Virus record (IMG/VR): IMGVR_UViG_2541047774_000010
From: a virus
Taxonomy: Duplodnaviria > Heunggongvirae > Uroviricota > Caudoviricetes
Length of the DNA stretch: 47,713 nt
Strand: one strand, 5' to 3'
The translations under genes were made by a program, and so were the position numbers. The notes beneath the pieces are model-generated. The model was not told where the DNA came from. It did no database searches and saw only the letters and a list, made by a program, of their open reading frames with translations. Numbering within the stretch: position 1 is the stretch's first letter; each line of letters opens with the position of its first letter. Below, piece after piece: positions 8,603-46,412 of the stretch.

Positions 8603-8687
8603 TTCTGCCATTCCGGGACGTTACACTGTTCAGGCACCTTATAAAACGGGTGCCGGGCGTGGAAACCCGGAATTCACCAAAGCGCAC

Positions 8688-8711
8688 AACCGCGCTCTTG
8701 CGGTTTTTTTG
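8688..8711 (+). terminator. Intrinsic terminator (tR1-like position)
   Basis: AACCGC-GCTCTT-GCGGTT hairpin followed by T7; it lies inside the track's 8274..9425 ORF, arguing that region is not coding. Confidence 0.45.
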
Positions 8712-8879
8712 TGTCATGAGCAGCATTACGCCCAAATTATGGTGGGGCGTGCAGGGCCAACTTCGGTTGGGCCGGGTTCTTTGGTGACCGGTATTTCCAC
8801 CCCTGTACGTCTCACCACCAATAAGGTCGTGGAAAGCCTTGGTGGTGAGTTATTAAAAATCACCAAAGAGGCTGCCATC

Positions 8880-17361: not shown

Positions 17362-17579
17362 AGGCTTTTCCTGTATAAATGGCCGTATACAGTACACTAA
17401 ATATGAAAACATATCTCGTATTATTATTTAATATATGATTTTCTTTTAAAATAATTACCCACATTTTTAATGTGTCTGTTTTTTAGCGCCGTTGAGAACA
17501 ACGTTTGCTATAAAAACTAACCCATAGACTCCGATCTTTTCAAACATATTGCACCATCTGTGTACATCGGGGTGAGGAT

Positions 17580-17795
17580 ATGAAATCAATGGATAAGTTA
17601 ACAACAGGTATCGCCTATGGCACATCGGCTGGTAATGCTGGTTTCTGGGCATTGCAGTTACTCGATAAAGTAACTCCGTCACAGTGGGCTGCAATCGGTG
17701 TGCTGGGTAGTCTGGTTTTTGGCCTGCTGACGTATCTGACAAACCTTTATTTCAAGATTAAAGAAGACAGGCGTAAGGTTGCGAGAAGAGAGTAA
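17580..17795 (+). CDS. Holin, EssD/EssQ-like
   Basis: 71 aa [26 protein letters not shown]...[33 protein letters not shown] matches the E. coli prophage holin EssD/EssQ as recalled; RBS GGGGTGAGGA. Confidence 0.88.
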
Positions 17796-17799
17796 TCCA

Positions 17800-18351
17800 A
17801 TGACACAAGACTATGAACTGGTTGTGAAAGGAGTCCGCAATTTTGAGAATAAAGTGGCGGTAACTGTAGCCTTACGGGACAAAAAACGCTTTGACGGTGA
17901 AATTTTTGACCTGGACATCTCGCTGGACCGTGTTGAAGGTGCCGCGCTGGAGTTTTATGAGGCAGCAGCCAGAATGAGAATCAGACAGGTATTCCTGGAT
18001 GTTGCTGCCGGGTTATGTGTAGGGGATGAGCAGTCGCCGGAAAAGCGCCCCATAATTTTAGAGGCGCAGAATGTGTGGATAACCTACAAAGGAAAGCTAC
18101 CGGGAAGAATTACTGGTTCTCTGAAGACGCCACCGACGGCATTGCGGTCAGAAAAAGATGATATTGAATCGCCCATTGAAAAACTGGAGGGCAGCGTCGC
18201 TGATCTGAATAAAAAATTGTCGGTGCTGATCCCTTCTGAAGATGAAAAAAAACGCCGCGATGAGCAGTTTGCGGCGTTTTACGATTATTGCATTGAAGTT
18301 ACTCGCAGGAATTTTGTGAAGATTTTTGAGGAGGGTAAATCTCTTCAGTAA
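17800..18351 (+). CDS. ydfR: YdfR-like protein (N-terminal similarity), with extended C-terminus
   Basis: Start MTQDYELVVKGVRNFENKV matches YdfR as recalled; this ORF is longer (183 aa) than the recalled K-12 YdfR (about 103 aa). Confidence 0.65.
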   Translation: MTQDYELVVKGVRNFENKVAVTVALRDKKRFDGEIFDLDISLDRVEGAALEFYEAAARMRIRQVFLDVAAGLCVGDEQSPEKRPIILEAQNVWITYKGKLPGRITGSLKTPPTALRSEKDDIESPIEKLEGSVADLNKKLSVLIPSEDEKKRRDEQFAAFYDYCIEVTRRNFVKIFEEGKSLQ

Positions 18352-18559
18352 GCTTAATGGCGGACGCTGCAATTAATTCAGGAAGGTCCGCAAGGTCATC
18401 TGTCAGTGGATATGATGAAAAATCGGCGGCAGTTCTGTTAAGAAGCGCTTTAACTAATTCCTTTTCCTTCTCCGGCAACAAGTTGATTAGAGCTACGACT
18501 GCTTGCCTGAGTGCGATTAAATCAGCAAAAGTTTGTTTTGGTAGATTTGTGTAATCCAT
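18299..18559 (-). CDS. Hypothetical protein encoded antisense within the lysis cassette
   Basis: 86 aa from MDYTNLPKQTF with strong RBS GAGGTGA 5 nt upstream; acidic, protein-like composition; overlaps the 3' end of the ydfR-like ORF on the opposite strand. Confidence 0.35.
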   Translation of the reverse strand: MDYTNLPKQTFADLIALRQAVVALINLLPEKEKELVKALLNRTAADFSSYPLTDDLADLPELIAASAIKLTEEIYPPQKSSQNSCE

Positions 18560-18672
18560 AGTCACCTCTGTGTTTATCAGATTGACATCCTCCTCCCGCC
18601 AGTGCCCATCACTGGTGAGGTAAGATTTAACATATCCGGGGATTTGAAGCCGATAAATCCTGATAAATATCC

Positions 18673-19700
<1,028 letters not shown>

Positions 19701-45837: not shown

Positions 45838-46412
45838 TGGCATTCAGAATGAGTGAACAACCACGGACCATAAAAATTTATAATCTGCTGGCCGGAACTA
45901 ATGAATTTATTGGTGAAGGTGACGCATATATTCCGCCTCATACAGGTCTGCCAGCAAACAGTACCGATATTGCACCGCCAGATATTCCGGCAGGCTTCGT
46001 GGCTGTTTTCAACAGTGATGAGGCATCGTGGCATCTCGTTGAAGACCATCGGGGTAAAACGGTTTATGACGTAGCGTCAGGGGACGCGTTATTTATTTCT
46101 GAACTCGGTCCGTTACCGGAAAATGTTACCTGGTTATCGCCGGAAGGGGAGTTTCAGAAGTGGAACGGCACAGCCTGGGTGAAAGATGCAGAAGCAGAAA
46201 AACTGTTCCGGATCCGGGAGGCGGAAGAAACAAAAAACAGCCTGATGCAGGTAGCCAGTGAGCATATTGCGCCGCTTCAGGATGCTGCAGATCTGGAAAT
46301 TGCAACGGAGGAAGAAATCTCGTTGCTGGAAGCATGGAAAAAGTATCGGGTATTGCTGAACCGTGTTGATACGTCAACTGCACAGGATATTGAATGGCCA
46401 GCACTGCCGTAG
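45837..46412 (+). CDS. tfa: Tail fibre assembly protein Tfa
   Basis: 191 aa, translationally coupled to stf (TAATG); typical Tfa N-terminus ([36 protein letters not shown]). Confidence 0.85.

Follow-up and report, generated by a model that had tools for sequence, protein, structure and literature searches.

The bor gene of phage λ is a moron that adjoins Rz on the opposite strand, and its product Bor is a secreted lipoprotein. A convergent antisense pair is known from λ OOP RNA and cII, which overlap by approximately 55 nt at their 3′ ends, and the Bacillus type I toxin-antitoxin systems txpA/RatA and bsrG/SR4 have shared bidirectional terminators. Here, we describe a small gene that runs against the late operon of a Qin-like lambdoid prophage in the IMG/VR virus record IMGVR_UViG_2541047774_000010, a stretch of 47,713 nt that is referred to as the window throughout. 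The gene occupies positions 18299–18559 on the minus strand, between a ydfR-like open reading frame (ORF) and the gene of a signal-arrest-release (SAR) endolysin, downstream of a P21-type holin gene, and encodes 86 aa plus a stop codon. We favour, with some reserve, the view that it is a moron-like accessory unit of the prophage, oriented against the late/lysis operon.

The small gene opens at an ATG (18559–18557), closes at a TAA (18301–18299) and yields a product beginning MDYTNLPKQTF. It is preceded on the minus strand by the Shine–Dalgarno sequence GAGGTGA (18562–18568), the GAGG core of which stands 5 nt from the ATG; the GTG at 18565, which opens an 88 aa form in the list of ORFs, falls within this Shine–Dalgarno sequence. 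A sequence-only reading of the same DNA had picked out an acidic, well-initiated antisense ORF in the lysis cassette, placed between holin and endolysin and overlapping the 3′ extension of the ydfR-like gene. Each part of that description was recovered: the ORF, its GAGGTGA, an excess of acidic residues (13 Asp plus Glu versus 8 Lys plus Arg), and a tail-to-tail overlap of 53 nt with the ydfR-like ORF (18299–18351, both strands). The length of the ORF is in itself no evidence, as approximately 20 ATG-initiated ORFs of at least 86 aa occur in the mononucleotide-shuffled window. What lifts the small gene above chance is that ORF, start codon and Shine–Dalgarno sequence are kept in three diverged clades, with a ratio of nonsynonymous to synonymous substitution rates (dN/dS) of approximately 0.3.

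The comparison set for the small gene comprised 111 loci, with 23 DNA alleles in three clades. With one exception, a deletion remnant in Salmonella (P0018), the close relatives (85–100% identity) come from E. coli; they resemble one another too closely to decide on coding status, and every indel among them is a multiple of 3 nt. An exhaustive HMMER search revealed two further clades at 41–57% identity, one in Salmonella prophages and the other in E. coli and metagenomes, and a second profile search that drew on the three clades together returned no additional one. A 975 aa TPR/CHAT protein (P0019), matched in eight stretches, was rejected as a repeat-helix or compositional resemblance rather than a homologue. 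Across the clades the start codon and Shine–Dalgarno sequence stand in register; the latter is GAGGTGA or GAGGCGA in the E. coli clade, and both remaining clades have TAAGGA. The dN/dS of the minus frame between clades was 0.28–0.39 (Nei–Gojobori; Fisher P values from 1.6e-5 to 1.1e-4); in an example pair, 37 differences at 60 synonymous sites stood against 62 at 198 nonsynonymous sites (Fisher P 2.6e-5), with synonymous sites near saturation. Tested alongside the three antisense frames, the sense frame had the lowest dN/dS of the four and was the sole one open throughout. Variable sites in the 86 codons numbered 46, 36 and 58 at the first, second and third positions, respectively, giving the order third, first, second. 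Inside the E. coli clade the dN/dS was noisy, at 0.3–0.9 with one pair at 2.7. Judged from these substitution patterns, the minus frame is a real protein-coding gene, and the purifying selection on it is moderate, not strong. The proposal of a genuine gene directed against the lysis operon is thus borne out by the purifying selection and by the conserved Shine–Dalgarno sequence and start.

The same interval also holds a 65 aa ORF on the plus strand (18357–18554), fully antisense to the small gene. An explanation in which the minus frame is untranslated, and the conserved element is instead this ORF, an antisense RNA or a read-on from the ydfR-like gene, draws on the observation that the plus-strand ORF stays open in the window as well as in the remaining clades. 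However, its start and length vary among clades, it has no Shine–Dalgarno sequence, and its wobble positions coincide with those of the small gene, the arrangement from which shadow ORFs arise. The predicted product is basic (pI 10.2), rich in Ser and Ala and of low complexity. Furthermore, the plus-strand frame shows a dN/dS of 0.37–0.63, versus 0.28–0.39 for the sense frame, with two to three stops across the span of the gene, and its second codon position would vary more than its first, the wrong order for a coding frame. Rfam covariance models run over 17500–19300 gave chance-level matches only (E 0.3–0.5, far under gathering scores), leaving no Rfam family in the region to account for the conservation. 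We consider an untranslated minus frame very improbable. Conservation confined to the plus strand was looked for, and it was the minus frame that proved to be conserved; on the same comparisons, the plus-strand ORF is a textbook shadow ORF and not a gene, although it could be miscalled as one.

Evidence for an accessory character comes from the borders of the segment in which the small gene lies, as drawn from alignment with one K-12-type locus and one O157 locus. Relative to the K-12-type cassette (holin, 114 aa YdfR, endolysin), the window contains approximately 465 bp extra with sharp borders. The added segment (approximately 18142–18605, both strands) is absent from K-12-type holin–ydfR–endolysin cassettes, is bounded by the imperfect short repeats CCACCGACGG and CCATCACTGG, and consists of the small gene together with the C-terminal extension of the ydfR-like ORF, designated X, the two being gained and lost as one indel. 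In O157:H7 and Stx2a phages the slot holds another minus-strand gene upstream of the endolysin, belonging to phrog_1853 (104–118 aa, function unknown; L113 3066–3422 and L116 2621–2935), and this gene is fused to the shared intergenic sequence immediately beyond an inverted repeat, CCAGTG-N5-CACTGG. The arrangement suggests that the position upstream of the SAR endolysin gene is an exchangeable site for backwards cargo. The G+C content of the small gene is 0.414, and 0.356 at third codon positions, versus 0.499 for the window and 0.513 for the endolysin gene rrrQ, a modest difference. The sequence-only reading had raised the idea of a moron, and part of it stands: presence and absence with sharp borders, a terminator-like hairpin downstream of the gene and a deviating, lower G+C content were all found, and expression as a moron is the part that we infer.

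In the explanation that we favour, the small gene would form a transcription unit of its own and would have arrived within this accessory cassette, made up of the X tail of the post-holin ORF and the convergent small gene, which some P21-type lysis cassettes carry and which is absent or replaced in others. Translation would proceed from the conserved Shine–Dalgarno sequence and ATG. Transcription would probably start in the conserved stretch just upstream of the endolysin gene, and the transcript would end at the conserved hairpin that lies among the codons of the convergent ORF. Late transcription, antiterminated by Q, must cross the small gene in antisense; expression is therefore expected when the late operon is silent, so that the product would be made in the lysogen or early after induction. 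Once the lysis genes are transcribed, collision and antisense pairing would shut the small gene off, which would be classical moron behaviour.

The hairpin (18245–18280, minus strand) lies 18 nt past the stop codon of the small gene, and consists of a 10 bp stem, a 12 nt loop and a U8 tract, with a folding energy of −17 kcal/mol (z −2.2). It was missed by a consensus terminator scan because of the 12 nt loop. In E. coli it is terminator-like on the plus strand as well. The structure falls within codons of the convergent ORF, those for KKRR (AAAAAACGCCGC) pairing with those for AAF (GCGGCGTTT) at 18249–18280, and every clade has it. The third clade shows RH in place of RR and VA in place of AA, and pairing is preserved as a G:C pair becomes A:U; a covariation test on this one double change was not significant, with 88 of 500 shuffles reaching the observed score. 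The 8 bp core of the hairpin is perfect in all six alleles that have the small gene, and carries a mismatch or G:U pair in all four X domains that lack it, both samples being small.

Approximately 115 nt upstream of the small gene are homologous in all clades. The inverted repeat CCAGTG-N5-CACTGG (18599–18615, minus strand) lies in the presumed 5′ leader and is conserved, with the junction of the O157 gene just downstream. Further upstream, a candidate weak σ70 promoter (18629–18657, minus strand) combines TATGTT at 18629–18634 and TTTATC at 18652–18657 across a 17 nt spacer; it has 7 of 12 consensus matches, and alignment shows it kept in register across clades. The 19-mer ATATTTATCAGGATTTATC (18652–18670, minus strand) contains a TTTAT-N5-TTTAT direct repeat with a period of 10 nt, and on the plus strand corresponds to the stretch directly preceding the start codon of the endolysin gene. 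No base of it varies among the three clades, even at Salmonella loci without an adjoining endolysin gene, and it is also present in K-12-type and O157 cassettes. The spacing of the repeat recalls response-regulator boxes such as the GTAAA-N5-GTAAA of CpxR, and the 19-mer could be a translation-initiation region of the endolysin gene, serve as an operator or belong to an antisense promoter. Within the leader there is also a perfect TTGACA on the late strand (18582–18587, plus), which is probably fortuitous because no acceptable −10 element lies at a distance of 16–18 nt.

The small protein has a mass of approximately 9.6 kDa and a pI of 4.57. An AlphaFold2 (AF2) model built with a 12-sequence family alignment shows a three-helix bundle (helices 8–25, 30–48 and 56–74) with a disordered tail of the last ~17 residues, at a mean predicted local distance difference test (pLDDT) score of 72 and a predicted template modelling score of 0.42. 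Neither a signal peptide, nor a lipobox, nor a convincing transmembrane segment was found; the most hydrophobic stretch of 19 aa (mean Kyte–Doolittle value 1.6) corresponds to modelled helix 1 and holds the invariant residues D13 and R18. Pfam and PHROG gave no holin-family match, and a holin, antiholin or membrane lysis regulator was rejected as an identity for the protein on both grounds. Nothing rose above threshold in Pfam, NCBIfam or PADLOC, where the toxin-antitoxin and anti-phage defence models matched neither the small protein nor its partner. A PDB profile search returned nothing significant, with the anti-CRISPR AcrIIC4 at the top (E 0.7). The small protein is predicted from the model to be a cytoplasmic, soluble, acidic three-helix protein, and it bears no signature of catalysis or DNA binding. 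For a small protein of this type the default inference is binding to another macromolecule, and most likely it acts by binding another protein.

The convergent partner of the small gene is the 183 aa ydfR-like ORF (17800–18351, plus strand). Pfam DUF1327, the YdfR domain, covers aa 1–112 only (17800–18135; PF07041, E 1.6e-41), and the remainder, aa 113–183 (18136–18351, plus strand), is X, with the motif EKKRRDEQFAAFYDYC...RRNFVK and matches to phrog_2091, 1085 and 36381. Among relatives, X spans approximately 40–70 aa with the pattern ...KRRDE..AA.Y....RNF.K..KS.Q, followed by the stop codon. What precedes X varies, the ORF being a stand-alone 73 aa, 116–144 aa, or a DUF1327 fusion of 169–243 aa; the stand-alone form in Salmonella has its own ATG, abutting the Rz stop. 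The pair of X and small gene occurs in two positions, either between ydfR and endolysin or after Rz, the bor-like position. In O157, Stx1 and Stx2 phages, X forms the start or the middle of ORFs of 213–329 aa, with no small gene nearby. The sequence-only reading had also considered an earlier true end for the ydfR-like ORF, on the model of K-12, and this idea found no support when ydfR lengths in relatives were compared: the K-12-type gene is shorter because the whole X plus small-gene segment is absent, not because of an earlier true end. The X extension is, from its recurrence in these ORFs, a genuine protein domain, and as a conserved domain it makes it probable that the two overlapping ORFs are both real. 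The Prokaryotic Genome Annotation Pipeline (PGAP) calls the intact 183 aa ORF a pseudogene ‘missing C-terminus’, cut at the end of DUF1327, in all genomes that were inspected (the window and loci L001, L003, L089 and L118 are examples). Because X is a conserved domain found within long Stx-phage ORFs, the flag is probably an artefact, most likely produced by alignment to shorter YdfR references. A single-sequence AF2 model of the 183 aa protein was uninformative (pLDDT 36).

In all 111 loci that bear the small gene, across the three clades, it converges on an ORF ending in X; the two overlap by 53 nt in the E. coli clade and, in both remaining clades, by 59 nt. This strict pairing leaves possible the idea of an antisense-encoded regulator of lysis timing, which the sequence-only reading had also entertained. 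The small gene and the helical X domain could form a functionally coupled convergent pair that tunes late-operon expression or lysis timing, either through direct binding, with the small protein as inhibitor or antidote, or through reciprocal antisense and terminator effects of the two 3′ ends. The adjacency holds despite a variable partner N-terminus and two locus positions, the two genes come and go as a single indel, and the hairpin that they share is terminator-like on both strands in E. coli. In addition, the Salmonella stand-alone X keeps its own ATG, shows a dN/dS of 0.33 between two alleles and is basic (pI 9.1), and the small protein is acidic (pI 4.6). The window's own X extension, however, is acidic (pI 5.0), O157 and Stx phages have X but no small gene beside it, and membrane or holin-like features are absent from both proteins. 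Between clades the dN/dS of X is too saturated to decide the matter. Inside the overlap the dN/dS of the partner frame is approximately 1 or higher, so the X tail may be incidental; together with the predicted disorder of the small-protein tail, this indicates an overlap that is tolerated rather than functionally dense. On balance, a coupled pair is a possibility that deserves attention but that we hold to be improbable rather than probable.

A more specific proposal builds an obligate pair around the X-encoded two-strand hairpin, with its KRR and AAF codons, which would gate endolysin production and lysis timing. The hairpin would terminate the small-gene transcript on one strand; on the late transcript, between holin and endolysin, it would serve as a gate or processing site that depends on Q. 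The small acidic protein, the antisense transcript or both would then set the time at which endolysin is produced. If true, this would represent a previously undescribed layer of lysis timing in pinholin/SAR-endolysin cassettes, and we regard it as unlikely.

Several observations weigh against a self-contained moron. An independent moron accounts for the strict co-occurrence with X no better than a coupled pair does. A consensus promoter scan (at least 9 of 12 matches) found no minus-strand promoter upstream of the small gene, the lone minus-strand match in the area lying within coding sequence, and the candidate promoter sequence is also present in K-12-type cassettes without any antisense gene. 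The U-tract of the hairpin is strong in the E. coli clade only, and the hairpin persists, slightly degraded, in X domains with no small gene downstream, so it is not exclusively the terminator of the small gene. No functional homologue was found in Pfam, NCBIfam, PADLOC or the PDB and fold searches, and a literature search on the small protein and the PHROG 2572 family to which it belongs yielded nothing, the sole relevant paper concerning K-12 YdfR. Finally, approximately 13% of sampled loci are disabled, by a change of ATG to ACG, loss of the stop, deletion of a Shine–Dalgarno G, or deletions. Two of these are natural knock-outs: in the metagenomic locus L086 (2983–3000), a deletion between ATAATCC and ATAAATCC repeats takes out the entire 94 nt upstream region, including the Shine–Dalgarno sequence, and in a Salmonella prophage (L088, 4001–4195) the first 25 codons are left, fused to antisense X sequence.

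Such losses would be expected of a decaying passenger that hitch-hikes with the lysis cassette in mostly defective prophages, as would the noisy dN/dS within the E. coli clade, which at times approaches or exceeds 1, and the narrow range of the gene, the three clades of which are restricted to Escherichia and Salmonella prophages. Set against this are the between-clade dN/dS of approximately 0.3 at saturated synonymous sites, which reflects long-term purifying selection, the Shine–Dalgarno sequence and start in register in all clades, and the occurrence of the exact protein on at least 1,000 contigs. Decay strikes us as quite unlikely, and the moron-like accessory unit remains the explanation that we prefer.

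The small gene is already known to databases as a hypothetical protein, in both RefSeq and PHROGs. The segment 17500–19300 is found at 99.9–100% identity in many E. coli chromosomes, with CFT073 at 99.9%. In the RefSeq annotations of CFT073 and S19-141, the order is essQ, a YdfR-family pseudogene, the small ORF (hypothetical protein WP_001306174.1), then rrrQ and rzpQ. The gene is present in approximately 294 of 5,426 complete E. coli genomes, the exact protein is named ‘hypothetical’ on each of the at least 1,000 contigs where it was seen, and eight records of isolated coliphages include the gene, among them 2H10, PhiR63_1 and the PhiR12/PhiR5 phages. A scan of a genome collection for the small gene returned one E. 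coli locus only. Residues 1–86 align with positions 1–86 of the 86-position profile of phrog_2572 (E 1.2e-53), a family of unknown function that the Salmonella homologue also matches (E 6e-24). Two more specific labels from phage records were rejected: ‘DUF1823 containing protein’, attached in PhiR12, where DUF1823 scores 13.2 bits against a gathering threshold of 25, and ABATE, at 14 bits against a Pfam threshold of 24.4.

The neighbouring genes are those of a Qin-like prophage late region rich in csp genes and other cargo. By annotation, essQ (17580–17795, plus strand) is a P21-type class II holin gene (PF04971, E 7e-34), and rrrQ (18673–19206, plus strand) encodes a lysozyme with a hydrophobic N-terminal segment resembling a signal anchor (PF00959, E 2.6e-24). 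Within rzpQ, in another frame, an ORF at 19354–19650 (plus strand) encodes a proline-rich tail after a lipobox-like LTSC; this ORF is likely to be the Rz1-type o-spanin gene rzoQ, and has no entry in the CFT073 RefSeq feature table. Two cspA-type thermoregulator 5′ untranslated regions (Rfam RF01766; 16451–16890 and 19917–20322, plus strand) lie ahead of cspB and cspI, the cold-shock genes of the prophage on either side of the lysis cassette. Elsewhere in the window, isrK (8634–8710, plus strand, 67.9 bits) and the C4 antisense RNA (8735–8822, plus strand, 83.6 bits) lie side by side, both at Rfam gathering level, in the P1/P7-type immunity RNA arrangement of some lambdoid prophages, and a full-length Rfam match to IS009 is located near the window end (46180–46378, plus strand, 221 bits).

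What this analysis adds to the hypothetical-protein entries is the coding evidence, two distant clades, the obligatory pairing with X, the embedded hairpin, the cassette borders and a variable slot for backwards cargo. If the moron-like explanation is true, the small gene represents one more uncharacterized prophage accessory gene, and the result is mainly useful for annotation: both overlapping ORFs are probably real, the PGAP pseudogene call for the ydfR-like ORF is probably wrong and the plus-strand ORF is a shadow. The work also draws attention to the gap between pinholin and SAR endolysin in Qin- and Stx-type prophages, where backwards cargo is swapped behind one conserved intergenic sequence; this slot is a sensible place to seek lysogeny-phase functions. 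A bearing on the mechanism of lysis timing would arise only if the small protein or its transcript acts with X or on endolysin expression.

Comparison with described systems places the locus as follows. The window product is identical to RefSeq WP_001306174.1 of CFT073 and many other strains, and shares its PHROG 2572 family with WP_001625288.1 and WP_059332741.1, all three entries being named ‘hypothetical protein’. K-12 YdfR is reported to bind RNase E's catalytic domain through its residues 1–72 (PMC13232886). Like the YdfR of K-12 Qin, the plus-strand neighbour in the window is a DUF1327 protein encoded after a P21-type holin gene, but it carries the extra 71 aa of X, which the 103 aa K-12 protein does not have, and the small gene itself is no relative of YdfR. 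The anti-CRISPR AcrIIC4 is similar to the small protein in size (86–89 aa), helical content and acidity, although the PDB match between them is non-significant. As in OOP/cII, txpA/RatA and bsrG/SR4, the small gene and X are convergent, with a 3′ overlap of 53–59 nt and a hairpin that is terminator-like on two strands. They differ from those systems in that selection appears to act on both as protein-coding genes, neither product is a small hydrophobic toxin, and Rfam has no family that matches. The product is also unlike Bor, being acidic and predicted to be soluble, with no signal peptide or lipobox and no similarity in sequence or fold; and, compared with the λ morons, the promoter and lysogenic expression of the small gene are a reading of its sequence. 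There is nevertheless a parallel with bor and other lambdoid morons: the small gene lies in or beside the lysis cassette, in reverse to the late operon, and has both a terminator-like hairpin and translation signals of its own, relatives may carry it, lack it or have it replaced, its G+C content is below that of its neighbours, and its Salmonella homologues occupy the bor-like position after Rz.

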